64,000 nucleotides of DNA, from the NCBI GenBank assembly GCA_024137785.1, contig JAHRHZ010000041.1, forward strand, positions 15,292,385 to 15,356,384. Direction: 5' to 3'. Of this stretch, positions 18,856-56,279 are shown piece by piece. A program made the position numbers and the translations under genes. Within the stretch, counting starts at the first letter, position 1. Every line of letters begins with the position of its first letter. The stretch is from Ginglymostoma cirratum (Eukaryota). Below the pieces are notes generated by a model. That model did no database searches. It was not told where the DNA came from and saw only the letters and a list, made by a program, of their open reading frames with translations.

Positions 18856-20971
18856 TGACAAATGAGCACAGGGCTTTGAATGTAGGGGTTACCTTACGAG
18901 CCCGATCAAAACCTATTCATGTCACCAGGCCCCCATTTAAACAATAACTAGAACGGATGGCAGGAGCACCCCGGATTCCCAGCCAAAGGGTCTGGGGATG
19001 CTGGTGGCCAGAATGCTGGTTATAAATGAAGCAATAAGTGACCAGGTGGTATTTGGGGGCCACACACATGCCATCTGCATCAGGTGACAACAGTTTTAAA
19101 AATGTCAAGTTAGAGAAATGATAAAGTGAATGAAAATGTTGGATATATTTCAAGTCACCATGACTAGGTTCCATGATTAAACACACTTGAAAAGAAAAAA
19201 AATTCATCTAGATGTTTTTCTTAAATGTGAACAAGGTTTACAAGACAAGACAGATTTTCACAGCAACTAATTTGAAAGGTTCCAGAAAGCTCCCAGGTGA
19301 GAAGAGACCAAGTTGGGAACAAGGAAGTATGAAACATTGCAGTCTCAGTCTCAGTCTCAAAGCAGTTATTTATCAAGCGCAGAAACAAAATTCAAAAACC
19401 TGCTCTACATACAATCCAAAGGAGACAGAAATCGGATGTCTTCGATACCTGAACCGAAAGGAAAACAAAGACACCCCCCTTCTGTCCTTGTGCCCCTACA
19501 AGGCTGAACCAGGTTCTGAAAAGGAAGCTTCAAGATGCCAAGTTGCCATTCATCAGTACAAACATTGGGGAGGTCAGTAAGTCAGTTTGAGCTAGGGAGA
19601 AGCAGGTCAGCTAAACTGGTTAATGAGACAGCTCAAGGTGCTGAAACATGGTTTTATTAAAACTCTCACACTGACGGGGTTAGTAATGCCTTCAAACCAG
19701 CTTTCCCAAGTCAGGAAAGAAATTTAACCTTGAAATACAGTATATGCGAGTGCACACATAGATATCTGCATTCTTTGGCATGGGAAAGGAACTGGGATCA
19801 GGGTTGGATGGTGCAGCTACAATGCAAGATAGCCCTCAGACTCTTTCAGACCTGGGGCAGGCATTTGATGAAAATGTTTTAAAAAAAGTGGAAAGCACTC
19901 TTTCAGTCATCCAAATCAAAACATCAGAAATCAGCTTTTGGTTCAGGCTGGAGTTGGTGGACACAATACCATTTGCTGTTTCTGGCAAAAAAAAGGGTTA
20001 ATGCCTCAATAGACTTGGCTTGGTGGTTATGGAGTTAATGTGTACACGTACTAATTTGAGTGTTGTTGTTTCAATGCTGACACAGTGTAACGGAGTAGAA
20101 TTTCCTCATCTTCCAGAAAGTGAGGCAACACAGCTGGAGAACCGAGCCAGACACATGGCACAGCAGGTTTGCTAAACATTACAAGTGAAAGCCGCTGCAA
20201 CGTGGCCTCCTGTTGAATACAGACCATCATGTGCTTTTGTTCAATGGGCTGCACGTAACTGAAGTGAGCAACTCCTTGTAAAAAAAAAAGGTAACGAAGC
20301 AGTTCTGATTTAAAATTAACCCCTTACTGCTTTCCTCAGTTCTGTCGCAATATACGAGTTTTTTTAAAAAAAAGTCACAAATAAGAACACAAATCAAAGC
20401 CCAGTTTAAACTGATGCAACACAACAACAGTTTATCCTGTCGACAATTTTGTTGAGGAGCAGATGGTTCAAAAACAGAGATTCATTCTAAGCGAAGATAA
20501 TGGCCAGCTTCTTAATACTGTAACAATTATTCAAATGCTTTCAACTTCAATGGTTGATCCAAGGGCTTACCATCAGACTCTGTGGTTTCAATCACAGCTT
20601 TTGAGGGAAAGAGACTTGAACCAGAGAATCCCTACGGTGCAGGAAGAAGCCATTCAGCCCACCCAGTTTGCACCAACCCTCCAAAGAGCATCTCACCCAG
20701 ATCCATTTGCCACCCTATGCTAGTAACCTGCGTTTTCCCTTTATTCCTTCGTAGGGTGAAGGCATCACTGGTCAGACAGCATTTATTGCCCATCCCTAAA
20801 ATTGCCCTGACTGCGGTTGAGAGTCAACCACATTGCTGTGGGTCTGGAGTCACATAGGCCAGACTAGGTAAGAATAGCAGAGATAGCAAGCATGGGGCTG
20901 GATGAACACAGCAGGTCAAGCAGCATCATAGGAGCAGGAAAACTTGACGTTTCGGGCCTAAACCCTTCATC

Positions 20972-21371
20972 NNNNNNNNNNNNNNNNNNNNNNNNNNNNN
21001 NNNNNNNNNNNNNNNNNNNNNNNNNNNNNNNNNNNNNNNNNNNNNNNNNNNNNNNNNNNNNNNNNNNNNNNNNNNNNNNNNNNNNNNNNNNNNNNNNNNN
21101 NNNNNNNNNNNNNNNNNNNNNNNNNNNNNNNNNNNNNNNNNNNNNNNNNNNNNNNNNNNNNNNNNNNNNNNNNNNNNNNNNNNNNNNNNNNNNNNNNNNN
21201 NNNNNNNNNNNNNNNNNNNNNNNNNNNNNNNNNNNNNNNNNNNNNNNNNNNNNNNNNNNNNNNNNNNNNNNNNNNNNNNNNNNNNNNNNNNNNNNNNNNN
21301 NNNNNNNNNNNNNNNNNNNNNNNNNNNNNNNNNNNNNNNNNNNNNNNNNNNNNNNNNNNNNNNNNNNNNNN
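20972..21371. other. 400-N assembly gap, probably spurious
   Basis: The 17 nt after the gap (ggcctaaacccttcatc) repeat the 17 nt before it. Confidence 0.85.
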
Positions 21372-21387
21372 GGCCTAAACCCTTCAT

Positions 21388-21415
21388 CTGATGAAGGGTT
21401 TAGGCCCGAAACGTC
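21388..21415 (+). ncRNA. Minimal type I hammerhead ribozyme motif, core intact
   Basis: CTGATGA-A-GGG(TTTAGG)CCC-GAAA-CGTC: conserved core boxes, stem II, loopless palindromic helix III (ACGT) and a GUC cleavage triplet. Confidence 0.75.
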
Positions 21416-22417
21416 AAGTTTTCCTGCTCCTATGATGCTGCTTGACCTGCTGTGTTCATCCAGCCCCATGCTTGCTATCTCGGATTCTCCAGCATCTGCA
21501 GTACCTTTTATCTCTTAGGTAAGAATAGCAGTTTCCTTCCCTAAAAAGGGCAGTAGTGAACCAGATAGGTTATTCTAACAAATGACAATTGCTTCACAGT
21601 CACCATTAGACTCTAATCCCAGATATTTATTGAATTCGAATTCCAACATCTGCTGTGGAGAGATTTGAACCTGGGTCCCCGGAACTTAGCTGGGTTTCTG
21701 GATCAACAGTCCAGCAATAATTCCACTAGGCCATCACCTCCCCATGGCTACACATCCTTGGATAATACAGGGAAATTTAACTTGACCAATCCATTTAACC
21801 TACACTTCTGAACGGTGGGAGGAAACCCACGTAGACAGACACAGAGAACGTGCCAACTCCACACAGTCAAACAAAACTAGAACAGAACCTGGGTCCCTGG
21901 TGCTGAGACACAGCAGTGTTAATCAGCGAGCCACCCTTTGGAATAGAACCTGCAGAGAACTCCTAAAGACATGAAGATTGCTAATCCCCGCACAGGGTGG
22001 GATACATCAGGTCCCAATAAACAGGACATGGGGCAATAAAAGGGTTTGTTCCCAACCTCCCCAAAAATCAAAAAAAAAAACTTCCAACTTCCCAAAACCT
22101 ATTACATTTTTGATTTTTCTAAACTCAGACAATAAGCTACAAACCTGAAAAGACTGCTTTTCTCTCTAGTCGGGCTGCCTGACTCAATGAACTTCTTCAG
22201 TCTTTCAAATCTATGGGATATTTTGATTCTGTTGAGAGTTACACCATTTCATTGAAAGAAAAAGGGTTTCCACTGAGGTACAGGATGAAACAAAATTCAT
22301 TGGAAAATATAAAGTTCCTCTACTTAGCAGGGTACAAATAATTTAAAATTGGAGATTTCAAGGCAAGGGCACGCAAAATGTATTATTACCTTCACTCACA
22401 CAATGACCTCAAACATT

Positions 22418-22449
22418 GAGCAGGAGCAGCAGCAGGAGGAGCAGGAGCA
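22418..22449. repeat. Degenerate (GCAGGA/GCA)n microsatellite followed by a purine tract
   Basis: gagcaggagcagcagcaggaggagcaggagca. Confidence 0.8.
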
Positions 22450-25414: not shown

Positions 25415-25575
25415 AAAAACCAGCAGAAAATGCTGGAAATACACAGACCAGTCAGCATCTGAAGACGGAGCACAGAAGTCAATAAAGCTGGGTATGGATC
25501 CATCTACTAACGTGAGATACACGAGTTGGACAGGCCTGGCCTGTGTATCCAGCATTCTCCACTTTTTGCTTGGCT
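25415..25575. mobile_element. Old PLE pseudo-LTR remnants in inverted arrangement
   Basis: agaaaatgctggaaatacacagaccagtcagcatctg faces ctggcctgtgtatccagcattctcc. Confidence 0.45.
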
Positions 25576-31680: not shown

Positions 31681-32311
31681 CAAACCGAAAAATTAGATCA
31701 AGTAGCTACACAAGCTGGTTAGTGCCATAGTGGCACCTCTGTAGCAGCATGGGCACCCACATGTCAACATGTTAATTAGCTGCCCTTTCCTACTGGCATA
31801 ATCCTGGGAACTCATCAGCAACCAATATCAGGGTCATTATGGAATGCTAGGAGAGCCATGGTCTGATTTTAAAATTACCAGGGCTATACCGCAGAACAAA
31901 GATATTAATGCAGGGAAGATTTGAAGTTTTCTGCTAAACCTTAGTTTATAGCTGCTGAAAGAAAGGCACAGTTTGTCAAAGCTTTTTACCTTGTACTCAT
32001 CGGGACAACAAGAAATGAGAATCCCCTTTCCTACAGTATAAATGTGGTTTTCCTTTTACATTGGCATCTCTTGCCATTTTCCCTGCTGGGGGCAAGAAAA
32101 CTGGTCTCTCAGCAATACTCAAGTGCTTTATCACTAATATAATTACTGTAGCATCCCTCAACATTAAGGAGGCTTCTCTCATCGGCAGTATCAAGAGATA
32201 CAGCTTGAAAAATATCACCTTAACTTCTTATACCCAAATATAGCTACCCTCTCCAGCAGGACAGCAAATGGCTAAGGGGTGGATACCAACCAGTACACAA
32301 ACTCTGAGGGT

Positions 32312-32453
32312 TAACACAGTGTGGAGCTGGAGGAACAGGAAAGTCCCGACCCGAAACAGCAACTTTCCTGCTCCTCTGATGCAGCCTAGCCTGCAGTGTT
32401 CCTCCAGCTCTACAGTTATCTCTGACTCCGGCATCTGCAGCTCTTCCTATCTC
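32312..32453 (+). mobile_element. Fold-back PLE pseudo-LTR insertion, decayed
   Basis: Short inverted arm taacacagtgtggagctggaggaacaggaaagt joined to cccgacccgaaacagcaactttcctgctcc...gcatctgcagctcttcctatctc; gggttaa on both flanks. Confidence 0.75.
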
Positions 32454-32811
32454 TCAGTGGGTTAAGTGTATATCTCTACAGTTCAAGTCAGTGGTTCACA
32501 TTAATTCCCATTCCCCAATACATTGCAAACACTCACATCCAGATTCAGATTCAATTACTTCCATCAACAAAGCAACAGTGCAAAGAACAACCTTTCCTAA
32601 ACCATTGGCAAAGTCCAACACAACAAAAGTTGGAAACAGAAGCATTACCATGAGATTGTTGGACTACATTGCCAGGCATGGACCTTCGGTCAGACTCAAG
32701 AAATTATGAGGAAAATGGATGTTCAGATTCATTAAAGAAAAGCCTGCTTCTCCTCTACATTCCTTTGAAAAAAAATTGCTCACAAGAGAAATCAAAAGTT
32801 TCTTTTTCTAA

Positions 32812-33149: not shown

Positions 33150-33335
33150 TAAAAACAAGTTATCGTAGAAACTAGCAGCTCTGGCGAGAAAGCAGAGTCA
33201 TCTTTTCAGGTCCTTTCACCAGACCAAAACTGTTGAGTCTGTTTTCTCTCTAGATGCTGCCAGACCTACTGAGCTTATCTAGCAATTTCTGCTCTTGTTT
33301 CAGATTTCCAGCATCTGCAGTTTGTAGGTTATTTT
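33150..33335 (+). mobile_element. Fold-back PLE pseudo-LTR insertion (family B), decayed
   Basis: agcagctctggcgagaaagcagagt..tttcaggtc faces agatgctgccagacctactgagctt...cagatttccagcatctgcagt. Confidence 0.65.
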
Positions 33336-34926
33336 TTGAACTGATTTTCTGTCCATTTTCCTGGCAGAGCCCAATTATAGACCAAAACAAAAAAAAAGTG
33401 TTTTTTCTGAGAAACAAACTCAGCAATTTCACTGTTTTATCAGCAGAAAACCAGCCTGAAAGCGTAACAGTGAAATTGGCAGCACTGAGGCAATGCAGGA
33501 GTTATTCGTAAACAGTGGAGCCAATGTCCAAGGAGCGCTCAATTCTGCTTCTGGCATTGTACTGTTCCAGTACCTGACCCCACACCATGTAATTACACTT
33601 TTCCAACTACAACTCATTTTTCATTATGACAAATTCAATTATCATTCCCATGACCATCTGACACTATGTAAATGTGTTCACATTTCATTTTACATTTTCT
33701 TTAGGGAAAAAGAGCCCTGGCGGTTCTTGTACATTTTCAGAAAATAAAACCCACCTTTTATTTCATGGAAATGGACTACTTCCTCAGCAATCACCAAAGC
33801 ATGTAGGCAAGTCAGGTTTGTCTTTTATGAAACCTTTCTAGCTATCAGTATCTGGCCCAAGTTACTCAGACGCTCTTAATAGCGTGTTGCCTCAATTCCA
33901 AAAGGAATTGAAGGTTGGGTATAAGTAGGCTGTTTACTTGAAGGAAATGCAAGGGCACGCTCCAGAGTTAAACAGAGGAGTCTGTCAAGTAGCACCCACT
34001 CCAGGGACTATCAGTTCCAAACTCTTGCATGCGTACAACTTGCATTGTTTAAGAAAAAAAAAGAACACTTATGAAACAGATTGAGATTCTTCACATCTGA
34101 ATACCCACCCCCAATAAAACAAGAGGCAAAGAATTACAGTATGTGAAATCTGTAAGACTTATTTTTTCTTCTTAAACATTTCCATTAATGATTCATACTA
34201 AAGCTCTTATGGCTGTACACTACGGTAAATTTTATAAAGTTTTGATTATGTTTTGGGTCCTTAATTAGGGAACGGAGGGGAGGGAAGGTGTCATGTGAAC
34301 TTGTGCTGAAGTCAGCATTATAACATGCCTAGATGATGGGGCTGTAAAAGATTAAAATAGGCCTAGATACTTTTCACCACCTTCCTAGAAAAGGATGTAC
34401 ACTTGCAAATGAATCTGGAGACAAACTGTCAGCCTCAAAAATCTCAACGCTGCTACCTGGATACATAGCCCATGTGATTCACCATACCATGGGGAATAAT
34501 GCAAAAGAAGCTGCGGTGAAAATCAGATTATAGGATTTACAGCATAACCAAATATCATAGATGTATGGGTTGTTCTGCCAGGCTGTGGGAGTCTGGGTGG
34601 GAGGGAGTGGGGGCAACTCAGGGCAAGACACTAAGCAAGTGAGCATGAGTAGGCGTGTGAGGCACCTAAAAACAGGGTGGAAGCTCATGCTTAAATTGTA
34701 AAGATCAAATTCATAAAACATGGCTGAAGTTTACCCAACTTGCGCCAACAGTAGGATTTCTAATAATAGAGTGAAGATTGTTGTCCACGTTAAGCTGCGA
34801 CAAATAACAAATAAATACTTGGATGTTGTGAATCACTGATTTTGGAATAATTAAATATCTAACTAAAAATGACAAAGCAATGTATACTTGCAAAGTGTAC
34901 TTCTTTGGTTGTTCTGAAGTAAAAAA

Positions 34927-34946
34927 GGCAGGCAGGCAGGCAGGCA
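34927..34946. repeat. (GGCA)5 microsatellite
   Basis: ggcaggcaggcaggcaggca. Confidence 0.9.
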
Positions 34947-34959
34947 GACATTCTGTTCA

Positions 34960-35160
34960 AAGATAGTAGGAACTGCAGATGCTGGAGAATCTGAGATAAC
35001 AAGGTGTAGAGCTGGATGAACACAGCAGGCCAAGCAGCATCAGAAGAGCAGGAAGGCTGACGTTTTGAGGGTCTAGGCCCGAAACAACATCAGCTTTCCT
35101 GCTCCTCTGATGCTGCTTGGCCTGCTGTGTTCATCCAGCTCTACACCTTGTTATCTCAGA
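34960..35160 (-). mobile_element. Fold-back PLE pseudo-LTR insertion with up to 15-bp TSD
   Basis: cagacattctgttca at 34945-34959 and 35157-35171; about 72-bp inverted arms with 3 mismatches; about 33-nt tail on the left. Confidence 0.92.
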
Positions 35161-35219
35161 CATTCTGTTCAGCGGTTTAAATTGCCAATACAGCTTTTAG
35201 TCACAGTATATGTCCAAAT

Positions 35220-36695: not shown

Positions 36696-36830
36696 CTGAG
36701 GGTCGGTCATTGGACCCAAAGTGTTAACGCTGATTTTTTTCTTCACAGATGCTGCCAGACCTGCTGAGCTTCTCCAGCAACTTTGTTTTTGTTCCCGATT
36801 TACAGCATCTGCAGTTCTTTTGGTCTTTAT
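36696..36830 (+). mobile_element. PLE pseudo-LTR (family B) with decayed hammerhead
   Basis: ctgagggtcggtcattggacccaaagtgttaac...gatgctgccagacctgctgagc...agcatctgcagttc; possible TSD catgttataca / cacgttatata. Confidence 0.7.
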
Positions 36831-37104
36831 CACGTTATATAGCATACGATTTTCTTTAAAAAAAGATGGGAATAAGTAAATTCTAAAGTTAGATTTCAAC
36901 TATTTTAAAGCTTAAAATCTGTAAGGGCACTTTAAAGATTTCCTAATGTTAGCTGTCTGCCCACTACAGACTTCACTGATATCCAAAAATTGGAAGTAGT
37001 TTAAAATAATGCATGTTGGAATTATGAACGTTTAAACTACCTAACCTACCAGCTTTCAGGTGGACGTTTTTTAAAAGCAAAAAAATGCTTTCATGGATGA
37101 GATA

Positions 37105-37228
37105 ACAAGATGGTAAGAACTGCTGATGCTGGAGTCAGATAACACAGTGCGGAGCTGGAGGAACACAGCAGGCCAGGCAGCAGAGGAGCAGGAAAGCTGA
37201 CGTTTCGGGTCAGGACCCTTCTTCAGAA
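37105..37228 (-). mobile_element. Single-arm PLE pseudo-LTR insertion
   Basis: Same family as 20881 and 34960; candidate TSD atggatgagata 37093-37104 / atggatgaggta 37229-37240. Confidence 0.85.
37199..37226 (-). ncRNA. Minimal type I hammerhead ribozyme motif, core intact
   Basis: The minus strand reads CTGAAGA-A-GGGTC(CT)GACCC-GAAA-CGTC^AGC. Confidence 0.78.
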
Positions 37229-40200
37229 ATGGATGAGGTAGTGTTTGTTGCCCATGTTAAATTGTTTTTGAAAAATCAAACAAAAAAAAAAACTTAAAAT
37301 CAAGAATGTTTGAAGCTTTCTAATAAAACTATAAAAACTAAAACAAAATCTACTCTCCATATAAAAGGTGAAAAAACAGACTGCGTTTAAAAGCAAAACT
37401 ACTGATTTTCATTTTAAAAATTAACATTCCCTGTAGTGTTAAGGTGGTTTGTGGTCAATCTCATTTGAGGCTTAGAGCAGTGGGTTAATTTAAGTTCATT
37501 AGCTTTAAAGTTAGGGGAAAAAAAAAGGAATCATTTGCATCACTGAACCCTGATAAATTCTAATTTGTTTTAATTCTTAAATTCAGTTCATCAGATTGTT
37601 ATTTTCTGCTGCAGCATGTCATTAATATAAATTCAAGTACTTTAGAAATAAAAGTCACAACAGATTTAATTAAGGTGACTACATCACCAAATCAGTCAAA
37701 ACTTGGCAGCATTTCCTATTGGAGAAGTTGACTAGACTCCATCCTGAATACTGACTGCATTCAGTTCTATTTAGAGACAACAATCAGGAACACCAAGCCT
37801 GTTAGCAGAAGGGCAATGAGGTTTGTTCTCTAGTGCCTGAAAACTCACTTGAGGATGAGGTGCGACAGTTTGAAATATTCAGCCTTTGAAGGACGGCACA
37901 GGAGAGAGAGTGGGGGATTTTATGATGGAGCAAACAGTACTCCAATTTAAATTCCAAATGCAGAAGACACATTGGGTACAAGGAGAAAGGCAAATTTACG
38001 CACAAAGCACTTTGCTTACGGTGAATAAAGCCTGGGTCATAGTCAACAAGTGTAAAGCTGCGGGATCTGAATGTGCATCCGTGTTTCAGCCAAACAGGTT
38101 CTCATGTTATTGCATTTTTGGAGACGGAATTCAATGGCAAAAATGTGGTCGCACATGAAATTGCACTTGCGCAGTTTAAATGTTAAAAATTTTTTAAAAT
38201 GCTTGCAATGGATACACCAGGACATCTCTTCGTAGATATACACAGCACACAGAGTTCAAGGCAGTTGTGGAATAACTCAGTGCTGATAGCAGAAAGCTCT
38301 CAGGCACTCTAAGATATGGTTAACAAAGGACCACCCACCACTCTAATACATTGAAAAACTTAACTGATGGGAGCTTGTTCAAAAGGTTCATCTTGATGTA
38401 TGAAATCTATCTGGAATTCATACACAGCTGCAAAAAGGTTATGTGTAACACACAACAGTGAAAGAAAAGTCTCAAAAAGCAAAAATTTCCTTGGCTCCAA
38501 CACCACATTCCTCACATCAATGCACTTCACTGACAAGGAACTGGAGGGCTGACCTTTCAAATTTCCTCGACAGTCACCTTCAACCTGACCCCTCATTAAG
38601 CCACAAAATCTCTAAGATGTTGGCTGCATTCTCCTCAGAGTAAATGCAGCCATTTATAATAAAAATAGCATGTTGGATACACAGCAGATAAGCAGCTAGG
38701 GCAAGTACTTGCAAGCAGAGCATTAAAGAAAATAGAAGCAACAATAAAGTAAAAGGAGAGGAGGTAAATTAGGATCAGTCTTTGGTAATACAGGGCAGCA
38801 AAACTAATACAAACCAGCTAATCACAAACTAATCAAAGGCAATTCAGTACTATTTCTAGTAAACTTAATTTTTTCAAGCCAACAAACTGAGCGGGTTTCA
38901 AAGCAAGAAGATTACTTTTTAAAAGAAATGTTGAGTATTATGTGAAAGAAATGAGCACATTTTGGTGAAGTATCAAGACAAAGCAATCCTACATTAGTTG
39001 TGTGTAACTCAAGTGCTCAGGACTATCTAGTAAATGTAATCCAACAATAGGACAGCATTTAATGTTGGACACATATGGGTTTGGTAAGCCCAAACTGCCT
39101 GGATACACCGTCAGTATCTTGCCTGCTCTGAACATCCAAAGGATACGCATAATGGTGAAGCAGTAGCAGTGCCATCTCCTCCAGGTGTTGCAACATGTTA
39201 GAATCAGCTTGACTAGAAAAAAATTTGCTTGACATGATCCACTAGTCTTGACTAACAGGTGAAGCTTGCTGCCTCCCAGCTATTACTATGCGATACAGTG
39301 GCAACTCAAGTGGTGTTCACCACTAACTGGGTGTTGGCTTAAATCTAAAAAAAAAATTAGAAAAATGCACAATATGAATTTCAGAGCTGGTGTTATGTCA
39401 GGTGCATAGATCATACAACCTGCTCATCTTTTGGATGGTATCAAACAGTACGTCCCTATGACAGCTCAAGTTACTGACCGCACCCAATCGACCTACACCC
39501 GCAAAACGTGAAACTAGTGCCCAACATTAAATGTGATTTCGCAGACAGACAACACTTGCCAGCTAACCCCGATTGGTTGTCAGCATTATTCACAATGTAG
39601 GATTCAGAGTTGGACTCAGTAGTGCACTGCACTGGAAGCTACATGTATTAATATACAGGGCTCGGTTCTCGGCTCAGACAGAATGGACACGTACATACAC
39701 CATGCCTACTTTCAACTTAAGATGGGTGATAGCAATTGTGGGTTCATTATTCAGTATGATGCCTCGACCAAACTGTCTGGTTTAAAATTTAAACAAAGCC
39801 TGGAAATTGTCAAATCAGGTGTATTTGCCACAGCAATACCTCTACCAATCAGAATCCACTTCCCAACCAGATCAGCAGCCTTCACTCCTGCACTATAAAA
39901 GTCAGTTTTATCTTTGAATTGGTGTTCTTGCAAAATATCCTGTTTGTTGCAAAACAAATTTCAGTCTTTTGCTATCACCAATATTTAAGTTATGCTCCAA
40001 AAATTTTCTTCTGACCCCCACTCCCAAAGACCACATGACTTATTGATTTTCTCTTCACAGGCACCCAATTCAAACTTGTGGGTCTTTCTGTGGGTGAGGC
40101 TGGTAATTCCACACATTAGTGTTGGAAGTTGGACGAAGGGAATGGAATATAGACAAGGGTTACATTGGAGGCCACCTCTACACACTTTGCACCACAGCCT

Positions 40201-41607: not shown

Positions 41608-41930
41608 GAGGAAGCAGCATAGGATAATGTCACTGGACTAGTAATCCAGAACCCTAGGTTAATGTTCTGGAGACAGGGACTGTAATCCTACCATGCAGCA
41701 TGGTGAAATTTGAATTTAATCAAAACTAAAGAAAAACAATCATAAAAAGGGGCAACCAGTTGATTGCTGCTAAACAAGTGAAAAACCCTCTGGTTCACTA
41801 ACGTCCTTTAGGGACAGGGATAATGTCCTTTCCAGGTCTGGTTTCCGTGAGACTTCAGACCCACAATGTGGTTGACTCTTAATTCAGGACGGCCAATAAA
41901 TGCTGGCCTGGGATGCCCACATCCCATAAA
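41608..41930 (+). mobile_element. tRNA-derived SINE, near full length
   Basis: aatgtcactggactagtaatccaga head, ctggttcactaacgtcctttaggga core, caataaatgctggcc...gcccacatccca tail. Confidence 0.75.
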
Positions 41931-41962
41931 CCTGTGTTTATCTCATTTGTTTACTATCTCTA

Positions 41963-42780
41963 AGGTAAGGACTGCAGATGTTAGAGTCAGACATAACACA
42001 GTGTGGAGCTAGAGGAACACAGCAGGCCAGGCAGCAAGTTGATGTTTTGGGGTCGGAGCCCTTCTTCAGAATTGGAGTGGGTGGGGAAAGGGAGCTAAGA
42101 AATAGAGGGGTGGGGGTGAGGCTGGGGAAGGTAGGTGGGATGGCGATAGGTGAATACAGGTAGGGAGGTGGTGGGAGTGAAGATGGACAGGCTGTCAGGT
42201 CAAGTAGGCGGGGATGGGGGGGCAGGGCGAATAAAAGAAACAAGATGGGGACATGGACGAGGCTGAGGGCGAGGATATTTTGAAACTGGTGAATTCCAAA
42301 TGTTTAGGCCATCGGGCTGTAGGCTCCCAAGGTGGAATAGGGAGGAGGAGATGTTATTCCTTCAGTTTGTGGGTGGTGTCACTGTGACACTGGAGGGAGG
42401 CAGCCTAGGCTACCTCCCATCACCCAGGGAGAGGGAGCAGGAGTTAAAATGGTTGGCGACCAGAAGGCATTGGTTATGTTAAGAGGGCAGGTGCTCTTTG
42501 AAAAACACAGTCTCCAAATCTACGCTTGGTCTCACCGACGTAGAAGGCCACATCAGGAGCAGCATTTGGAATAGACCAAGTTGGCGGATGTACAGGTGAA
42601 CCCGTCTGATAGGAAAGGTTTGCTTTGGGCCTTGAATGGAGGTGGGGGTGATGTTGTAGGGGCAGGTGTAGTACTTCCTGCGGTTGTTGGGAAAAAGGTC
42701 AGGTCAGATGCGGTAGGGTTACTGGGGAGTGTGGACTGTGGAGCACGCAACCGGACACTGCCATGGAAGGAGCCCCCAGT
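41963..42780 (-). mobile_element. 5'-truncated Penelope-like element (Neptune-like): GIY-YIG endonuclease pseudogene plus 3' pseudo-LTR
   Basis: Frameshifted translation FPNNRRKYYTCPY (degenerate Cys linker), FTCTSANLVYSKCCS*CGL-YVGETKRRFGD, VANHFNS, FHLGSLQPDGLNI; ends in the same pLTR as the short copies, with a decayed hammerhead CTGAAGAAGGGCTCCGACCCCAAAACATC. Confidence 0.9.
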
Positions 42781-44404
42781 ATACAGTATCTGTGTCCTCA
42801 GCGGAAGGGAGGAAAGAAAGGAGGAGCAAGTCTTGGTCAAATATTTCAAAGATGTCAGCAACTAAACCGAACAGTTCAAATCTCACTCACCAAAATGTAG
42901 TACCGGCATCTTGAAAAGTTACCAAAAAAAGGCTAAGATCCACCTAATTGTGGCATCCCAAGATTTCTCAATGTTGTCATGTTAAAATGAGTAATGATTT
43001 ACATAACTGAAAAAAGGTTCAGCTGCTATCGCACTGACGATCAGGTTGAATGTGCCGAGGGGAACCCAAAGCTTGCCACAAACAAAATTTCTAGCATTTA
43101 ACTCAGCCTTGTTAACAAAGTGACAAGAGGTTTGATACATTATAAAGAGCCTAGTGGACTGACACGTACCAGGGTAATGGTAGGACAGTGCAGGTAGTCT
43201 CTGCTGCTTTGTGCTTACAAAGGCCTATAGGTGGAGGAGGTGAAGACTGAACTCTTCAGATTCCCCCAGCTTCACCATAAATTTAAAAAAAAAAAACAAT
43301 TTTCATCACGATTCCCCCATTTCCTGTCTTTCATTCTGGTCCAGTCACTGTCTGGATGATGCCAAAGTGAGATACTAATTGGCTACTGCCAACAATAATT
43401 TGGAAAAAGAGCAATGATAGAGAGAACAGCTAAGGAAGGGGTGGAATACACACTTGACAACAGGTTCCCAACACATTGTACTCTAACCAGTGAACTGAGG
43501 CAGACTCCAGTATTAATTCAGCACTGTCACTTGTTACCTTGGCAACAGCCACGGTTCAGCTGCAGCCAGAAAGAAAAACGAGAAGTCACAGCTCCACATC
43601 AACAGGTCATTCACTGGCAGTTCAGCAAGATGGAGGTCACCACAGCCGCTGACTCCATCAACCCAAAAGCAACAGCAGGACAACGGAAGGATTAGGTTTC
43701 AGTGGCCAAATCAGTTCTGGTTTATGATGGGTGTGCAGGAAAAGCTGCACTCAAATGATACACTTGTGAATCAGACCTTCTGGATCTTTTCACACAAGCA
43801 TTATTGCACAGTGCGGCATTTAGTTTACTGTGGAGAGAGACCTGGGAGGAACACTGATTTAACAAGTTCTATTTAATTAATCAACTGAAACACATGCACT
43901 GACAAACCAAGTCTTTTGTGGAATAGGCTTGAAATCCTTTCTCCTCTCTCTCTTCACTCTTGTATTGTTCCAGGCATCACAGATATGGAATTCCATTCCA
44001 AGAATCTGTCAGCAAAACTCCCAATTTAATTCAGCCTAATCCAAGATAAATCCACGTGTCTTTTTGGTATTCAAAAGATCTCCATCAGCAATAACCTTGT
44101 CCTAAACATTAACATGAAAAGCAGGACTTCCAACAAAGTTCATGGCAAGTCATATCATGGGCTAGTGGAAACAGAGGAGCAAACACTAGCTAGGAAATAG
44201 CTTGAAAAAGGATGCAATTTGGTTCAAAACTCCGCTTATGAAAAATAAGTTCACATAATAGACTTAAAATGTCAATGGCCTTCATCATTTGATGCCTGTT
44301 TAGCAACACACAATTTAAATTTTCTATGGAGACATTACAACACAGGTGAGGTCATTTGGCCAATAGAGTCCATACTGACATTTTGTAAAATCAGTATGGA
44401 ACAC

Positions 44405-45015
44405 AGTTGTTGGTTCATTCGCTGAGCTAACTGGTTTTCATGCATGTTTCATCTCCTTCCTAGGTGACATCTTCAGTGCTGTTGTTCAGTTCTGCTCTGA
44501 ATATATATGGTCCGGTCTGTCATGGTGGTACCATTGTGTTATGTGGATGGAATCCATTTCAACATGTTTGTTTATTGCACTAGTGGTTGAAAACCAGGCC
44601 TCCAGGAATTCTTGTGCTTGTCTTTGTTTTGCTCGTTCTAGTACTGTAACTTTGTCCCAGTTAAACTGATGTTCTTCTACGTTGGAGTGTATTGAAATGA
44701 GGGAGAGCTGGTTGTGTCGTTTTTGCTGGGAGTCGGTGTTAGTGCATCCTGGTGGTGAGTTTCCTGCCCATCTGTCCTATGTCATGTTTCTAGCAGTTGC
44801 TGCATGATATTTTGTATACCACGTTTGTCCTGCTCGTCATGGGTATGGGGATTTTCATCATTGCCAGTTACACTCAAAGTGTGGCTGTTGGTTTGCGTGC
44901 TATCATTCAAAGAGGTTGGAGTCTTGTAGTCTGCTCTGATGTGTTTCTAAAATAGGGCAGGGTAGCCAGTGTGTTGGGACATAGTGTCTTCTTGGTGTTG
45001 TTTATTTGCCAATTT
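44405..45015 (-). mobile_element. 5'-truncated Penelope-like element (Poseidon-like): GIY-YIG pseudogene plus 3' end
   Basis: Translation LATLPYFRNT..., TNVVYKISCSNC*KHDIGQMGRKLTTRMH, HQFNWDKVTVLE, QEFLEAWFS..AINKHVE. Confidence 0.9.
44441..44479 (-). ncRNA. Decayed hammerhead motif of the Poseidon-like element
   Basis: GCA-CTGAAGA-T-GTCACCT(AGGA)AGGAGAT-GAAA-CA-TGC: core boxes present, stem II imperfect, cleavage triplet damaged. Confidence 0.55.
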
Positions 45016-45019
45016 GCCT

Positions 45020-45195
45020 GGATTGCCCTACATGGGGGAAAGGCCTTGACTATTCACTCTATCCATGCCCCTCATGATTTTATAAACTTCTATGAAGGGC
45101 ACCCCTCAACCTCTGACGGTCCAGGGAAAATAGCCCCAGCCTATTCACCCTCTTTCCTATAGCAGGGAGACCAGAATTGAACACAGTATTCAGTA
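45020..45195 (-). mobile_element. CR1 fragment; its tail may be the piece at about 44330-44385
   Basis: atccatgcccctcatgattttataaacttcta...ccccagcctattca homologous to 11120-11225. Confidence 0.7.
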
Positions 45196-48100: not shown

Positions 48101-48302
48101 AAAATACTGAATTGTGTTATTTATATACTCCATTCGAAGGAAAGTAACAAGATAAAATGCAGTGAAGTCACGGCAATTTCCCAGATTTGAGAAAGGAACT
48201 CAAGGTAACGTGCCTCAAAGCCAGCTTAACAGAAAAGGAATTCCGACTACAACATCAAAACATAACACTTTGTCAATCGCCACTTATGCATCATTTTGAT
48301 TA

Positions 48303-48439
48303 AAGTAAAACAAAACTGCAAATGCTGAAGATCTGAAACAACTGTTCTGAAGGATCATGAGACTTGAAATGTAGACTCTGCTTTCTTTCCACTGAGGCTG
48401 CCAGACCTGCTGGGTTTCTCCAGCAGGTTCTGTTTTGGT
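48303..48439. mobile_element. Fold-back PLE pseudo-LTR insertion (family B)
   Basis: Tail arm aactgcaaatgctgaagatctgaaac joined to inverted ttctgaaggatcatgagacttgaaatgtagactct...gctgccagacctgctg; candidate TSD atcattttgatta / atcatttaaatta. Confidence 0.65.
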
Positions 48440-48699
48440 ATCATTTAAATTAGGTTACTTTCCACATTAGACAAATTTAATTGTGTGGCATACAACCAAA
48501 ATACAATTATGCGACCGTTAACATCACAAATTCTACTTCATCCAGATTCGTTCCACAGCTCGGTGACCAAATAAGACTACATTTTTAGATATGGAACCTC
48601 AGCAGCCCATCATTTCTTCACTTGCTGATGCATGCCAAGGCAGCAGGCTCCAGTTTGGGCAGCAATGGGCATTAGCAACTTCAAGCATGACCCTAGAGC

Positions 48700-50132
48700 C
48701 ATCTGTTGGGAGATTTTTGACCTAGTGACAGTGAAGGAGCAGTGACACAGCTCTAAGTCAGGATGGCATGTGTTGAGTAGTTACGCATTGGTGTTCCCAT
48801 GCATCTGCTGCCCTTGTTCTTTACACACTGAAGGTCACTGCTAAAAGGAGACTGGGGTGAGTTACTCTGGAGATAGTTGGAACTGCTCATGCTAGAGAAT
48901 GAGATAACAAGGTGTAGAGCTGGACGAACACAGCAGGCCAGGCAGCAGTAGAGCATCAGGAAAGCTATTCTGAAGCAAGTCCAGACCCAAAACGTCAGCT
49001 TTCCTGCTCGGCCTGCTGTGTTCACCCAGCTCTACACCTGGTTATTGGGGTGAATTACTGGAGGTCCATTTTGTACATGATACACACTGATGCTGCCATA
49101 TATTGGTAGTGGAGGGAGCGATTGTTGATGGTGGTGAAGTAGTAAGCAATGGAATGGCCTCCTTGTCCTGAAGGACATTGAGATATTGTTGGAGCTGCAC
49201 CCATCCAAGCAAGTGGGAAGTATTCCATCATAATCCTGTTTCCTACAGATGGTTGCAAGGCTTTGGGAAGTCAAGGCGAGTTACTACACAACCTCCAGTC
49301 TCTGGCCTGCCCTTCTAACCACAGTATTTAGTTGGTTGCTTCAGTTCAAGGTCTGCTGCTGTTGGGGATTTTAGTGACAGGAACACTGTTGAATGTCAAA
49401 AGGAGTTAGATTCCTCTCATTGGAAATAGTCACTGCCTGACACTTGTGGGACAGAATGTACATTGCTACTCATCAGCTCAAACTGCAACACTGTCCAGGT
49501 CTTAAAACATTGCAAGCACGGACCGCTTCAATGTACCAAAGTGCCATGGGTGTACAAGATATTATGCAATCAGCAACATTTACACTTGGGCTTTCGATGG
49601 AGGAAGACAATTGATTAAGTGGATGAAGGCAGCTTGACCCAAGGCAAAGCCCTAAGGTACTCCTGCAGCAATGATCTAGGACTGAAAATGATGGTCTTTC
49701 AGCAACCACCACCGTTTTCTTTTGCCCAAGTTTGACTCTAACCAAGTAGTGATCTCTCCACCCCAATTCCCAGAGCCTTCAGGTTTTCTGGGGATCATCA
49801 ATGCCACACTTTGTCAAGAAAAATCTCTCATCTCTAGAATTCAGTTCTTCTGTCCATGTTTGAACCAACTGACCTCTCCAGAGCACAAACTGAGCAAAGA
49901 GCAGACTAATGCTGGGTAAATGCTTCTTGATAGCAGTGTCAAAGACAAATCAAAAGTAAAGTGGGACTAGACCAAAGGGACAGTAACTGGTCAGACTGGA
50001 AATGCCCTGCTTTGAATGGTCAGGACATACCTGCACAATTTTCCATATTGTCAGACAGACGCCAGCATTGTAGCTGTGAAAGGAACAGCCTTGCTAAGAG
50101 CTGGCCTAGTTCTGGAGCACAAGACTTCAGTT
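48700..50132 (-). mobile_element. Decayed CR1/L2-group LINE RT region (family of 18237)
   Basis: LKSCAPELGQLLARLF..SYNAGVCLTIWKIVQVCP near 50020-50130 and MEYFPLAWMGAAPT at about 49190-49230. Confidence 0.8.
48867..49045 (-). mobile_element. Fold-back PLE pseudo-LTR insertion within the LINE, 14-bp TSD
   Basis: tggggtgagttact 48853-48866 / tggggtgaattact 49046-49059; inverted arms meet at 48966/48967. Confidence 0.85.
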
Positions 50133-50739
50133 AAATCAATTCACATGGAGCCAAAGGACTGGTTTACAGTCACCCTGGTATTTTACAGGTGATCTTATTG
50201 AGACTTGGCAGGCTGCTACAACTTGAGATGCGAGAATAAAAATCAACTACAACACAAAATCACTAAGTTTGAGATCCAATCTGCACTCAGAATTGGATCA
50301 AAAATTATTCCATACAAACACAAAGGGTGCTTTCTTCAAAATGACCCGCACCAAATTATGAACAAACTGAGAACAAAGCCTTTTCATCATTAATAGGAGA
50401 CTTCAGTCAAAGACAAAATGGAAAACACTTGCAGACTTTTTCTAAAAAACGTACTCAGCTAAGGAATGTCTTTATGAAAACCACAGATGTGAGACAGTGG
50501 AGTTTCATTAAATATTTCCAGTTGACCTTATGCTGGAATTCAAACCAGCGCTAGCCATAATATGCACCAGCTCTGCTTCAAGTTCACAAAGAAATACTTC
50601 AATTCTCCAAACATTGTGTGCATGTCCATTTTGCACTAGCATTAACAAAAACATGTTTACAATATACACTGTTCAGCCTAGATACAAAATCTGATTTCGC
50701 CAGTGCCTCTATAGAGTCAACAAACAAGGCTCGATTAAA

Positions 50740-50881
50740 CAAAAAGAAACCAAAAAGAACTGCGGGTGCTGGAAATCAGAAATAGAAACAGAAGTTGATG
50801 GGAAAACTCAGCAGATCTGGCAGCAACTGTGGAGAGAGATCAGAGTTAACATTTGAGGTCCAGCACCCTTTCTTCAGGACT
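50740..50881 (-). mobile_element. Single-arm PLE pseudo-LTR (family B) with 12-bp TSD
   Basis: ggctcgattaaa 50728-50739 / ggcttgattaaa 50882-50893; decayed core CTGAAGAAAGGGTGCTGGACCTCAAATGTT. Confidence 0.75.
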
Positions 50882-53690
50882 GGCTTGATTAAAGCTTTGC
50901 ATTCACAAAATGCCTGTGGGCTTTGTTTCAAATGGGGTCCAAAAAAGAACAACTGTAGATACCAACCACGAAACGATGCAGATCTCAGGGCAGCTATCCC
51001 AGTACATAAATCCATCACAACTAAATGGACCTTCCTGTCATATTCAATTGCAATGGTTTATTTACATACACTCTTCTGTTTCTGCCTTTTGGTTTTGAGA
51101 TTCAAATCTCAGGCAGCAGAGGCAGGGCACATCCAACTAACACAATGGGAAGCTATGGTCTCGGGAAGCTTAGCTACATCCAGGTGCATGTCGTGTGCAT
51201 TCAACATACTCATCGTAATTTCAACTAAAGTCCAGAGAAACAAAAGTCCACATTTCCTTTCAAAAATGCTGATGACGGTGGTGCCAGTGTATCTTGGCAA
51301 GTCTCCAGAACAAAGTTGAACACACTCAGCTCAAGCCTGAAACAAACCCTTTGTGTATTGAATACATGCTACTGATAACACAAGAGCTATTTTGGAATGG
51401 GTTTTGCACCAAGTCCTTGCCCGTTAGGTTTAATGAGCATCATATTCGTTAACGTGATCTGCGAATTCACACTGATCTCTGCCAAATTTTAACCACACAA
51501 GTTGGTACAAAAGCAGCAGCTCAGTAGTTGCTATGGAAATAAGTACCTTTCATAAAAGAGAAAGCACTGACTATTTCAGTAGCCTCCCTGGATCTACTCT
51601 CTTCATGTTTCATCAATTTCATTTTACTGGATTTTAGCTTTCAAGTTCTAAATTGGCCCAAATACCTCTCAGATCCTAAATTTTGAACAACACAATTCAA
51701 CGATCTGGAACGAAGTGGCATTGTTACCATTCCCAAATTCATCCCCCTCTCGCACTCTCAGATGTACAAATACTGCTCCTCTCGTCAGTGCAATGTACCT
51801 CATCTGCTGTTTCTGAATGATTGAGATTGAGTGGAAGAATGAAAAAAGACAAAGCAAAACTATTTCAGAAATATTACACACTCTTCTGGGTGAGGGATGC
51901 CAGAAGGCTGTTGGATAAGAGGGCTTTTTTTAAAAAAAAAAAAAAAACCACCTTCATAGGTCACATCATGCAGACCTCAGCTTACATGTAACTACCAGGG
52001 GGAATCAGACCAGTCGAGCTGCCACATTGTGCTTCCACACAAGTTTGCAAATCATGCCTAGAGAGTCTACTGTCCAGGATCCGAGTTGATGTAAACTGGA
52101 GACCTCACGGCATACACCAGCTAACAGGAGCTCTGTAATGTTTGAGAAATCATATTTTAAGCCTGAAGAAATATTAACTGATAAATACTTGCAGACTGCT
52201 TGTGCCGAAGTAGTAAGCGTAGGATTATAAAACAATTTAGAGTCAGAGTCATACTTCACCTGTAAACATTTCCCACGAGGTGCAGAAAAGAAAGACCAGG
52301 CAAAACACGCTTTTCACAACCTTATACGCACAGCTCAGTAAGCAAATTATACCATATATACCAAGAGGAAATTAATTGTGGCATTGTATTTCAAAGTGTA
52401 CAAAGGTCATAGTGACAGTACAGTATTAGCCATGTTAATATTAACAGTAGCAAGTATGTGGATATACATCTGACATGAAAAATGTCCCCATAGACAAACC
52501 ATGAAATTCCTGATCTATGATCTTCAACTGGATTGTTCAACCAGTTAGGTCTCTAAGCTACCTTCGTAATGTCATTTGCAATGGGACTTCTTCACTATTC
52601 AAAATCATTTTCCATAATAATCTTCTATACTAGGTGAAACACGTAATAAAGAAAATCACAAAATAAAGTAACAAAGCTAACTTTACTTGAAACAGGACCA
52701 CCTATCCACCAAAGGCAAAGCTGAAGTAAGCCAATCAGCCCATTGTGTTTGTTCCACTATTTCATTAAATGACAGTTAATCTATCCCTTCCACGTAGTAC
52801 CTCGTCCTTAATCACATGCACCACATGGTCTCCTGTTCCACTGAATCAATGTCTTTTGAATCAAATAACCAGAGGCAGCAGTGAGAGAAAGAAAAAAACA
52901 TGCAAGAAACCAACTATCATCTCTGAACTCTTTACATGGTTCAACATACAGCAATTCAAACATACATGTACAATTTGTAAGTGAAAAGTCCACTCCAGAA
53001 AAATAGAAAAACTGCTTAATTTAACTCTTCCAATCTCAGGCTCATGCATCTAAAGCTTGCAAATGACAAATTTCTGTTAAACCAAAGCAAGGGCCCATGG
53101 GAAAGCCGTGAGACATGGACATGAAGCCAGGTCTGCCCAAGTAAAGCTTATAGCACGAATGGACTCTATACTGCGGTGTGCAGAGAGCAAATCCACAAGA
53201 CATGAACAAGCCTGGGCTCTGAGCAGATGCACAGGACCAGGAAACAAATACATATTGTCCGTTGCTGAACCATTTAGACTAGACAGGTGCATAACTTGAT
53301 CGCTGCAACATGTCAAGCTATTTAACCTTAGTCAGGAAGTGGCACAGACATAAGTGGCCTCAGCTGTTTTGGTATGGAAGGAGGTGGAGTAGGGAATTGT
53401 TTCATAGCACAAGTTGACACGCTGTCTACATCGTGCGGCTCAGATTTTCACATCAAAGCAACAGGTCTTTGTACAAGTTGGTGCATGTGACAGACAGTTA
53501 CACATCATTCAGAAAAAACTTCTAGAATTTCACTGGGATTTCTGAGATCGTAAAAAGGGCAACTCAGGCCTGCACAATACAGTTAACTGGATAGCCACGT
53601 TTGTTTCACAATAGTCAGACCTCCAAGCAAATGCAAATGGAAGCAGCAGAAATCTGGGAATTTTCTCCCTTCATCAGGTTATCAATGCAG

Positions 53691-53820
53691 AGAGATAACA
53701 GTCTAGGCCCAAAACGTCCAGCTTTCCCGCTCCTATGATGCTGCTTGGCGTGCTGTGTTCATCCAGCTCCACACCTCGTTATCTCGGATTCTCCAGCATC
53801 TGCAGTACCTATTATCTCTA
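53691..53820 (+). mobile_element. PLE pseudo-LTR with a very short inverted arm
   Basis: gagataaca followed by gtctaggcccaaaacgtccagctttcc...gttatctcggattctccagcatctgcagtacctattatctct. Confidence 0.85.
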
Positions 53821-56238: not shown

Positions 56239-56279
56239 GCCTCCACAGTCCCTTCTTTTGCAACCAACTATACCAGCCA

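Follow-up and report, generated by a model that had tools for sequence, protein, structure and literature searches.

Scattered through the 64-kb stretch of shark DNA analysed here (the window) are short insertions that carry a hammerhead motif and in several cases fold back on themselves with unequal ends, which raises the question of what element they come from and whether such hairpins are copied as hairpins or put together at the target. A preliminary description had seen in them a dispersed, ribozyme-defined system of non-coding mini-insertions mobilised by the reverse transcriptase (RT) and endonuclease (EN) of Penelope-like elements (PLEs).

Results

At least six copies of a unit of about 130 nt had been claimed, and this was confirmed by blastn and nhmmer: the six loci listed, together with the one at 41963, share the unit (20881, 32312, 34960, 37105, 41963, 48867 and 53691, hereafter c1 to c7; blastn E 1e-14 to 1e-57). 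A profile of this family A recovered the main arms in nhmmer with E 1e-18 to 1e-38 and gave 0 matches in the reversed window used as a control. Read 5' to 3', the unit consists of a minimal hammerhead, site 1, a tail and site 2, both sites being marked in family A by a repeated TATCTC-type motif, of which the inner one is site 1 and the outer one site 2. From motif to motif, the tail measured 33, 33, 33, 31, 31, 29 and 29 nt across the seven loci, so that the 33-34 nt originally given becomes 29-33 nt. A sister family B, absent from the preliminary description, has the same anatomy with a tail of about 40 nt and comprises seven further loci (b1 to b7), two of them inverted, which brings the density to 7 family-A plus 7 family-B loci in 64 kb. 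A tRNA-derived SINE was rejected, since the Rfam search gave no tRNA family match over any copy at E up to 5 and, with no tRNA-related head, the 5' end is the hammerhead.

The parent element is represented at c5, where a decayed Neptune-type GIY-YIG PLE spans 41963-~42845. Its terminal unit (41963..42075, minus strand), with a decayed hammerhead core, tail and site 2, is the 3' end of a coding relic, as had been proposed. A C-rich 3' UTR (42076..42275, minus strand; G-run-rich on the cDNA strand) separates the hammerhead from a decayed PLE linker with a Cys motif plus GIY-YIG endonuclease (42276..42775, minus strand), which contains several frameshifts and stops; the element is 5'-truncated near 42845. 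The 42276-42775 stretch was matched in tblastn (E down to 1e-14) by the whale-shark protein P0012, which has RVT_1 (E 9e-5) and GIY-YIG (E 9e-5, at the Pfam cut-off) domains, and by its relatives; these proteins carry a CX4CX2C linker of which the aligned stretch of the window is a decayed homologue. Searched alone against Pfam, the window pieces of the GIY-YIG relic gave no match, and neither did any of the 242/242 stop-free stretches of at least 62 aa in the window give one above cut-off; no host gene was found in which the dsRNA stems suggested earlier for introns would lie. The 64-kb window contained no RT domain and no full-length element, and the 5' pLTR, transcription start and ORF start are therefore not seen. 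According to the available excerpt of PMC8557442, a Cys-rich linker between RT and EN is a trait of Neptune/Nematis. Judged by sequence, the loci are best read as the shortest insertion products of Neptune-type PLEs, the Neptune label coming from the linker. That they belong to PLEs is almost certain, given the tblastn matches of RT plus GIY-YIG proteins and a database protein, P0030, which joins the antisense of a PLE RT domain (42/56 residues, vs 22-24 in 12 shuffles) to the sense unit from the hammerhead onward. Two other proteins, P0028 and P0029, read through fold-backs of the unit with two further, different apexes, and P0027 begins at the hammerhead core; P0027-P0030 are gene predictions without DNA, so that a splice could mimic adjacency. 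In family A, minimal forms stood to coding copies as 6 to 1 in this window.

Five fold-backs had been counted in family A. Head-to-head structure held for four (c1, c2, c3 and c6) but not for c7 (53689..53819, plus strand), since its long arm (53700-53819; beginning in stem II, 33-nt tail) follows an inverted start-site piece of only 9-11 nt and lacks a TSD. In line with that description, the inner TATCTC-type motif bounds one arm and the outer motif its partner. One of the four is c1, a perfect palindrome, in which a 16-bp TSD copy lying within an older repeat (20865..20880, plus strand) precedes a short, tailless arm that ends at site 1 (20881..20971, minus strand), and in which the long arm (21388..21515, plus strand; intact minimal hammerhead core at 21388-21415, site 1 at ~21481, site 2 at ~21514, 33-nt tail) is followed by the second TSD copy (21516..21531, plus strand). 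The arms were 91/91 identical, and the apex is hidden by a 400-N assembly gap (20972..21371) that is false, the contig ends overlapping by 17 nt. Since c1 crosses this gap with arms 100% identical, an assembly or sequencing artefact might be thought of as the origin of the fold-backs; the others, however, are gap-free and TSD-flanked with diverged arms, and the same structure occurs in database proteins from elsewhere, which makes an artefact next to inconceivable.

In c3 (34945..35171 with its TSD; MFE -161.7 kcal/mol; arms 68/71 identical), the long arm (34960-35066, minus strand) ends at site 2 with a 33-nt tail, and the short arm (35067-35156, plus strand) ends at site 1 and extends further into the hammerhead. 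In c6 (48853..49059 with its TSD; arms 42/48), the long, site-2 arm (48870-48966, minus strand) is paired with a short, site-1 arm (~48967-49045, plus strand) that carries the whole mutated core. The c2 fold-back (32302..32465, arms and decayed TSD) combines a short arm of ~26-34 nt with an internal deletion, ending at site 1 (~32312-32345, minus strand), and a long one that begins in stem II and has a 31-nt tail (~32344-32455, plus strand). The remaining locus, c4 (37093..37237, minus strand), is a single-arm copy (37102-37228) with an intact core (37226-37199), a 29-nt tail and an additional piece of ~10 nt resembling site 1 at its 3' junction. Family B presented b2 (33151..33340), a fold-back without TSD and with its apex in stem II (short arm ~33151-33220, minus strand; long arm ~33216-33335, plus strand), and b4 (48290..48452), where a tail-only arm (48303-48341, minus strand) abuts a body arm (48342-48439, plus strand) with almost no overlap, the two covering positions 96-135 and 18-92 of the reference. 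Single arms were found at b1 (13718..13801, plus strand, ending near site 1), b3 (36696..36830, plus strand) and b5 (50728..50893, minus strand), and decayed copies at b6 (56169..56254, plus strand, E 2.7e-7) and b7 (60934..60985, plus strand, E 1e-9).

Flanking direct repeats were compared with 20,000 random flank pairs. They were clear in c1 (16/16, p 5e-5), c3 (34945-34959 / 35157-35171, 15/15, p 5e-5), c6 (48853-48866 / 49046-49059, 13/14, p 7.5e-4), c4 (37093-37101 / 37229-37237, 9/9, p 0.006) and b5 (11/12, p 0.006); b4 showed 11/13 (48290-48302 / 48440-48452), and c2 a weak repeat (7-nt core, p 0.07) that on a wider look becomes a decayed TSD of 11/13 (32302-32314 / 32453-32465). None was found at c5, c7 or b2. 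TSD lengths over both families were thus 16, 15, 14, 13, 13, 12 and 9 bp, as against the 12-16 bp stated earlier for four loci. Host-repeat paralogues at 63153-63336 and 41780-41882 cross the c1 junction without insertion. These paralogous empty sites and the variable TSDs back a TPRT-type insertion. Short, high-copy, palindromic sequences with TSDs also recall MITEs moved by a DDE DNA transposase; we rejected this as barely credible, because an offset of 29-33 nt between the family-A ends (31-33 nt in the four fold-backs) contradicts flush terminal inverted repeats, and also because TSD length varies from 9 to 16 bp, single-arm copies have TSDs too, all apexes differ and an RT/GIY-YIG element has the unit as its terminus.

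The hammerhead core was complete only in c1 (plus strand) and c4 (minus strand), being mutated or truncated in the other five of the seven family-A loci, and the Rfam search gave no hammerhead match in the window. In the two fold-backs modelled, the pairing probability of stem II was 0.00, vs 0.3 in a single-arm copy. Since arms run through the cleavage site, most templates were uncleaved. This bears on retrozyme-like, non-autonomous elements processed by the ribozyme, whose boundaries would be set by hammerhead cleavage, possibly via circular RNA. The c6 long arm has its 5' end exactly at position +29, the base that directly follows the cleavage site; the c2 short arm falls, by eye, ~1 nt short of that site, the matches of b6 and b7 start close to it, and PLE-derived retrozyme monomers are described for one chondrichthyan genome in the excerpt of 10.64898/2026.07.22.740005. 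Yet chance could account for one exact match, given that some ten arms end in a 30-nt zone, most arms pass the cleavage site into the core, TRF found no tandem array of the unit, and the core, intact in 2/7 loci, is masked in both modelled fold-backs, so that we hold this explanation to be very improbable. On these counts, "ribozyme-defined system" overstates the part of the hammerhead, which would be a passenger and a landmark in copies mostly dead on arrival; nor does anything set a separate non-autonomous system apart from short products of ordinary PLE RNPs.

A site-1 end opposite a site-2 end, with the tail on one side only, was found in 6/6 scorable fold-backs (c1, c2, c3, c6, b2 and b4; c7 was dropped as ambiguous), which has p 0.016 under an independent 50:50 choice of ends. 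The RNA-sense 3' ends of both arms point outward, to the TSD. In c3, c6 and b4 the site-1 arm has 5' sequence missing from the site-2 arm, which in turn has the tail; neither arm is therefore a plain copy of its partner. The arms overlap in 5/6 fold-backs and not in b4, where the site-2 arm goes no further than site 1, the form that twin priming on a single RNA takes. No consistent leading arm emerged, because it is the site-1 arm that supplies the loop in c3, c6 and b4 but the site-2 arm in c2, c1 being level. Concordance between arms was clear only for c1 and c3, the closest match of the c2 left and c6 right arms not being the partner. In 6/7 family-A loci the farthest 5' end lies within ~20 nt of the core, a clustering at the 5' edge of the hammerhead for which truncation spread evenly over 40-300 nt gives a rough p of 5e-6. 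At least four sequence groups of the identity matrix include hairpins, and the apex differs in every fold-back of the window. The preliminary description had taken these differing apexes as a sign that each hairpin was built at insertion. They are not the stronger evidence, because palindromes can lose their centres after insertion, and such deletion could also be the source of the mutually exclusive arms. Construction at insertion, by second priming, is nonetheless the most likely reading because the ends are heterotypic throughout, in three loci each arm has sequence missing from its partner, the arms of b4 abut and hairpins appear in several subfamilies.

A snap-back, in which the cDNA primed at site 2 would fold near the hammerhead and copy itself, with the second strand resolved by the EN at site 1 and the apexes made to differ by later deletions of the centre, seems to us rather unlikely. 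It would yield heterotypic ends automatically and fits the arms of c1, which have private variants in common, the greater asymmetry of copies older than c1, the youngest-looking one, and the several apexes in stem II, a ready-made small hairpin; the excerpts used also propose self-priming for junction palindromes (PMC3846280) and EN resolution for the tail (PMC8557442). However, the extra 5' sequence on the site-1 arms of c3, c6 and b4 would need a later deletion in the partner, the tailed arm of b4 ends at site 1, and site 1 corresponds to a direct RT start site in vitro (PMC11167929). Alternatively, PLE proteins could act in trans on the transcripts of a few hairpin master loci and retrotranspose them entire, as non-autonomous elements, with apexes decaying separately. 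No two fold-backs of the window have the same apex, P0028 and P0029 differ in theirs, hairpins grade into single arms and coding relics, and a fully base-paired RNA would hide sites 1 and 2 and require exact regeneration of both ends; despite the high density of loci and the ability of PLE proteins to act in trans on pLTR-flanked sequence (PMC3846280, in excerpt), we regard such masters as improbable.

Discussion

The explanation that we hold probable is an insertion in which both nicked strands of the target act as primers, at two internal start sites of the RT; it is drawn from a small sample of six fold-backs in one window and with an anole enzyme for comparison that is a Poseidon, not a Neptune. 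The GIY-YIG endonuclease would make staggered nicks ~9-16 bp apart, and reverse transcription would be primed by each 3'-OH, from one of them at site 1 and from its counterpart at site 2, which lies 29-33 nt downstream; the machinery would probably be a dimeric RNP on one RNA, whose trailing RT would displace the leading cDNA or stop at it. Both cDNAs would usually end at or near the 5' edge of the hammerhead, and short-homology end joining would then link them into a head-to-head hairpin that has its tail on one side and an apex peculiar to the locus. Extension of one end only would give a single-arm copy, and a cDNA that runs on would leave a canonical PLE, 5'-truncated and with an inverted pLTR. 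The common stop would most likely arise from RT initiation in the 5' copy of the pLTR on the mRNA, followed by run-off at the RNA 5' end, or else from stalling at the ribozyme fold or the G-run tract. In Drosophila Penelope, the pLTR contains the transcription start, which a 75-bp intron follows 46 bp downstream (PMC2377424); the end of that intron maps to helix I of the hammerhead (PMC4209133, in excerpt). The anole Poseidon protein nicks and extends both target strands, starts RT in vitro at two internal sites bounding the tail, is dimeric in the published model and can dispense with hammerhead cleavage; top and bottom strands were found not to differ in start site, which does not of itself yield coupled heterotypic ends (PMC11167929).

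A wider reading is possible but somewhat doubtful. In it, integration would be coupled and two-ended, by a dimeric RNP whose two RT active sites sit on one RNA at fixed internal positions separated by the length of the tail, each primed from one strand of the staggered cut; initiation in the 5' pLTR would make strong-stop mini-insertions the main product, and a minority would be copied from hammerhead-cleaved RNA. If true, this mechanism alone would explain the inverted pLTRs, one-sided tail and TSD of PLEs, extrapolation from 7 per 64 kb would put the number of such fossils in shark genomes on the order of 10^5, and the minority would be in-vivo evidence that PLE hammerheads cut. The origin of the inverted ends and tail, and hammerhead cutting in vivo, are stated to be open in PMC11167929 and in the excerpt of PMC8557442. 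The value of these loci is as a dense in-vivo record of PLE integration, in insertions short enough for both junctions, apex and TSD to be read in one piece; at a density of 14 loci in 64 kb, a single shark assembly would contain very many of them. Short-read assembly fails at perfect young palindromes, as in c1, and many long hairpins may feed dsRNA pathways if transcribed.

In L1 twin priming, both target strands prime on the RNA and produce an inversion with a TSD, the inverted part being a different, upstream RNA piece primed by homology. The abutting arms of b4 are similar, whereas both primings here use fixed sites 29-33 nt apart, and arms are therefore usually duplicates. Poseidon_Ac (PAc) of Anolis resembles our loci in vitro in its two start sites bounding the tail, in the nicking and extension of both strands and in its uncleaved RNA template, but belongs to a different clade, and here the ends appear coupled, one site each, with a TATCTC-type motif at both in family A; inverted or fold-back products are not discussed for PAc, the sole "inverted" being a primer block (PMC11167929). 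Non-LTR retrozymes, known from a chondrichthyan too, are likewise non-coding, pLTR-related and hammerhead-bearing, with dispersed monomers, but their definition in the excerpt of 10.64898/2026.07.22.740005 is by head-to-tail tandem units, each with a hammerhead; our loci are head-to-head or single, and this identity was rejected on the tandem criterion. With the dispersed metazoan PLE hammerheads they have in common a short helix I, an extra base before helix II, a G-C closing pair and a palindromic helix III; the excerpt of that survey ascribes thousands of single motifs per genome to truncated PLEs and reports some pairs on opposite strands 100-700 bp apart, names no shark, and has junctions, TSDs and tails outside its analysis (PMC4209133). 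Among published PLE traits are thus the inverted pLTRs, the tail on one side only and minimal hammerheads that are dispersed or lie on opposite strands. The closest likeness is to 5'-truncated copies of Neptune EN+ PLEs, which, in the excerpts of PMC3846280 and PMC8557442, combine a C-terminal GIY-YIG after a Cys linker, a pLTR hammerhead, a head-to-head inverted pLTR, a one-ended 30-40-nt tail, a variable TSD and assembly trouble at inverted repeats. Head-to-head inverted pLTRs with a TSD were found in c1, c3 and c6, and more weakly in c2 and b4; unlike in the copies described in those excerpts, however, both arms here usually stop at the hammerhead, and nearly the whole insertion is therefore pLTR.

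Seven copies of one unit and a sister family

Six loci, at 20881 (c1), 32312 (c2), 34960 (c3), 37105 (c4), 48867 (c6) and 53691 (c7), had been described as copies of one unit of about 130 nt. This was confirmed by blastn (E 1e-14 to 1e-57), which also found the unit at 41963, as the 3' terminus of an element there (c5), and by a profile built from nine arms, which recovered all seven loci (family A) and gave zero matches on the reversed window. Of the five fold-backs claimed in the preliminary description, c1, c2, c3 and c6 are real, whereas the second arm of c7 measures merely 9-11 nt; c4 is a single-armed copy. The arms of the fold-backs lie head to head, with the target-site duplication (TSD) at both 3' ends. 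Copy c1 spans the sole N run in the window and, since the contig ends overlap there by 17 nt, it corresponds to a perfect palindrome left unclosed by the assembler.

Scored against 20,000 random flank pairs, flanking direct repeats were significant at c1 (16/16), c3 (15/15), c6 (13/14) and c4 (9/9), marginal at c2 (p 0.07; 11/13 when looked at more widely) and absent at c5 and c7. A search for empty sites among paralogues within the window, covering c1, c2, c3, c4 and c6, was clear for c1: this copy was inserted in an older repeat, and the paralogues at 63153-63336 and 41780-41882 cross the junction with a single target copy. The flanks of c6 are collinear on both sides with a paralogue at 18248-18518 that does not span the junction, and c2, c3 and c4 gave no paralogous match.

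A sister family (B) comprises seven more loci, b1 to b7, whose blocks are those of family A and whose tail is about 40 nt long. Two of them, b2 and b4, are inverted, and TSDs were seen at b5 (11/12) and b4 (11/13). Four weaker matches to the family B profile (22145-22200, 25421-25475 on the minus strand, 41476-41503 and 59924-59974; E 0.03 to 1e-4) are probably older related families of pseudo-LTRs (pLTRs).

Anatomy of the unit

On the sense strand, the unit begins with a minimal type I hammerhead, followed by about 60 nt of sequence, an inner 3' end motif (site 1), the tail and an outer 3' end motif (site 2). A TATCTC-type motif forms the end of either site in family A, with spacings of 33, 33, 33, 31, 31, 29 and 29 nt; motif to motif, the tail thus spans 29-33 nt rather than the 33-34 nt first proposed. 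The hammerhead has an extra base before helix II, a G-C closing pair and a palindromic helix III, all given as traits of the minimal hammerheads of Penelope-like elements (PLEs) in the available text of PMC4209133. Among family A loci, the full core is kept only in c1 and c4. The pairing probability of stem II was 0.00 in c1 and c6 versus about 0.3 in c4, and the ribozyme is therefore predicted to be masked in the fold-backs c1 and c6. Cofolding of two hammerhead monomers produced an intermolecular duplex that differed from the active dimer fold. Rfam at E up to 5 returned no hammerhead family; its sole matches were to miRNA-precursor models, fell short of the gathering scores and reflect the hairpin shape of the copies.

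In c3 (34961-35065, minus strand) and c4 (37101-37226, minus strand), one frame runs without a stop from the hammerhead across site 1 and through the tail; in c7 it is partly open. It may represent the first codons of a PLE ORF, since the ORF of an anole PLE starts inside the hammerhead (PMC11167929). Four database matches to the translated unit (P0027-P0030) were discarded as evidence of such a start, being accidental read-throughs in predicted proteins.

The parent element

That the unit is the 3' end of a GIY-YIG-encoding element was borne out, c5 being the terminal unit of a decayed relic on the minus strand. Pfam had no match on five stop-free pieces of this relic (42040-42900), a homologue search with a mixed-frame piece found none, and the top ESM Atlas score (0.77) was uninformative. 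Among three phmmer matches, P0001 and P0003 were discarded as low-complexity repeats and P0002 was the real lead; a search with it yielded 22 longer proteins, one named as whale shark (P0012), a match from which a shark-like host is inferred. P0012 and its relatives aligned to the minus strand of 42276-42775, the matches being spread over several frames (tblastn, E down to 1e-14). In a Pfam scan of 22 of the 25 proteins, with P0025 omitted as a chimeric prediction, P0012 bore RVT_1 and GIY-YIG domains; it also has a CX4CX2C linker, a type typical of Neptune and Nematis (PMC8557442). The relic itself is 5'-truncated and without RT, and the window contains no full-length copy. We conclude that the loci belong to EN+ PLEs, probably of the Neptune clade. 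MITE and retrozyme identities were also tried, and the loci lacked the marks of membership in either class that were tested.

Predicted proteins P0028 and P0029 run across unit fold-backs with two further apexes (hairpin centres), P0027 begins at the hammerhead core, and P0030 contains a PLE RT domain in antisense (42/56 residues versus 22-24 in shuffles) followed by the sense unit from the hammerhead. As these four are gene predictions without DNA, the adjacency of the pieces joined in them is rated only as likely.

Two other PLE remnants lie on the minus strand. A second Neptune-like relic at 18050-18870 (tblastn E 1e-6) is split by another repeat at about 18250-18700, and no terminal unit was found with it. 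The other, at 44410-45000, is a decayed 3' fragment in which tblastn weakly detects GIY-YIG-like pieces (E 0.007) and Pfam has no match; a separate hammerhead-like core lies near 44430-44480, and by motif the fragment looks to be of Poseidon type.

Formation of the fold-backs

The evidence on mechanism comes from six fold-backs in one window, each of the six that could be scored having one site-1 end and one site-2 end (p 0.016 under independent 50:50 choice); c7 was left out of this count, its short piece fitting site 1 and, with 10/11, also site 2. In c3, c6 and b4 either arm carries sequence absent from its partner, and in b4 the site-2 arm does not run past site 1 (it covers reference positions 96-135, the other arm 18-92). 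The 5' ends cluster: for 12 of the 14 loci of both families the profile match begins no later than position 12, and upstream continuation into the coding relic was seen only in c5. In vitro, the anole PLE protein nicks each strand of the target and extends it, and its RT starts at two internal RNA sites bounding the tail (PMC11167929). On the basis of the heterotypic ends, the mutually exclusive arms, the 5' clustering and the anole results, we favor, as a reasonably probable reading, two-ended priming, in which one target strand would start at site 1 and another at site 2, the two cDNAs then being joined together. The main rival is a snap-back whose centre was deleted later (PMC3846280). In its favor, asymmetry is seen in the older copies but not in c1, which is perfect, and several apexes fall within stem II. 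The two arms agree clearly only in c1 and c3. As proof that each hairpin was formed at insertion, the differing apexes are insufficient alone and were rejected.

The common 5' stop is best explained by reverse transcription that starts within the mRNA's 5' pLTR copy, by analogy with Drosophila Penelope, in which transcription starts shortly upstream of the hammerhead (PMC2377424, PMC4209133). Alternatively, the ribozyme or the G-run tract of 42076-42275 may have stalled synthesis. Matches in b6 and b7 begin near the hammerhead cleavage site, and the long arm of c6, a single case, ends exactly at it; hammerhead cleavage is dispensable for the anole protein (PMC11167929).

Pieces of the start sites, 9-11 nt long, were present at the junctions of c4 (37099-37111), c5 (41952-41961) and c7 (53689-53699), that of c4 being site-1-like and placed before the site-2 end, and that of c5 an inverted site 2. 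Their words are absent outside the seven family A loci, and they could stem from abortive priming or from re-priming, recalling telomerase-like realignment. Some 3' junctions show 3-4 nt of target/element microhomology (c3, 35157-35160; c2, 32312-32314; c4, 37099-37101), although the cases are few and decayed; in the anole system, by contrast, initiation is non-homologous (PMC11167929).

Other sequence in the window

A search for a host gene in 242 stretches, which small exons would escape, gave zero Pfam matches at cut-off, so that the proposed seeding of introns with long dsRNA stems is conjectural. A sub-threshold match to the Pfam PSI family (plexin repeat) at 1242-1442 on the minus strand (E 0.001) is possibly a host-gene exon, or chance. 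The element at 9741-10527 is probably a non-autonomous DNA transposon. Its terminal inverted repeats measure 83 bp, are 94% complementary and lie 621 nt from each other, and no TSD was seen. A dispersed repeat at 21748-21933, 56679-56902 and 57502-57683 may be a tRNA-derived shark SINE, which it resembles, and a 121-nt pair, 80% identical (11097-11217 and 45033-45153), is by resemblance a candidate 3' region of a CR1-type LINE.

Comparison with known elements

Eulor and a palindromic Penelope entry in Dfam are conserved vertebrate hairpin repeats. A link of our copies to them was unsupported by the available part of PMC5753468. The minimal fold-back insertions are a real feature, and with them the mechanism of PLE integration can be tested on a large scale. 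Searches of the openly readable literature turned up neither such insertions in sharks nor coupled two-site priming; Repbase/Dfam or subscription papers may describe them. Already on record are inverted pLTRs that bear a TSD and, on one side, a 31-bp tail, together with solo pLTRs and palindromes at junctions (PMC3846280), a tail of 30-40 bp on one side, along with assembly problems (PMC8557442), minimal hammerheads dispersed by the thousand, plus opposite-strand pairs (PMC4209133), and tandem retrozymes derived from PLEs, with a chondrichthyan among their hosts (10.64898/2026.07.22.740005).
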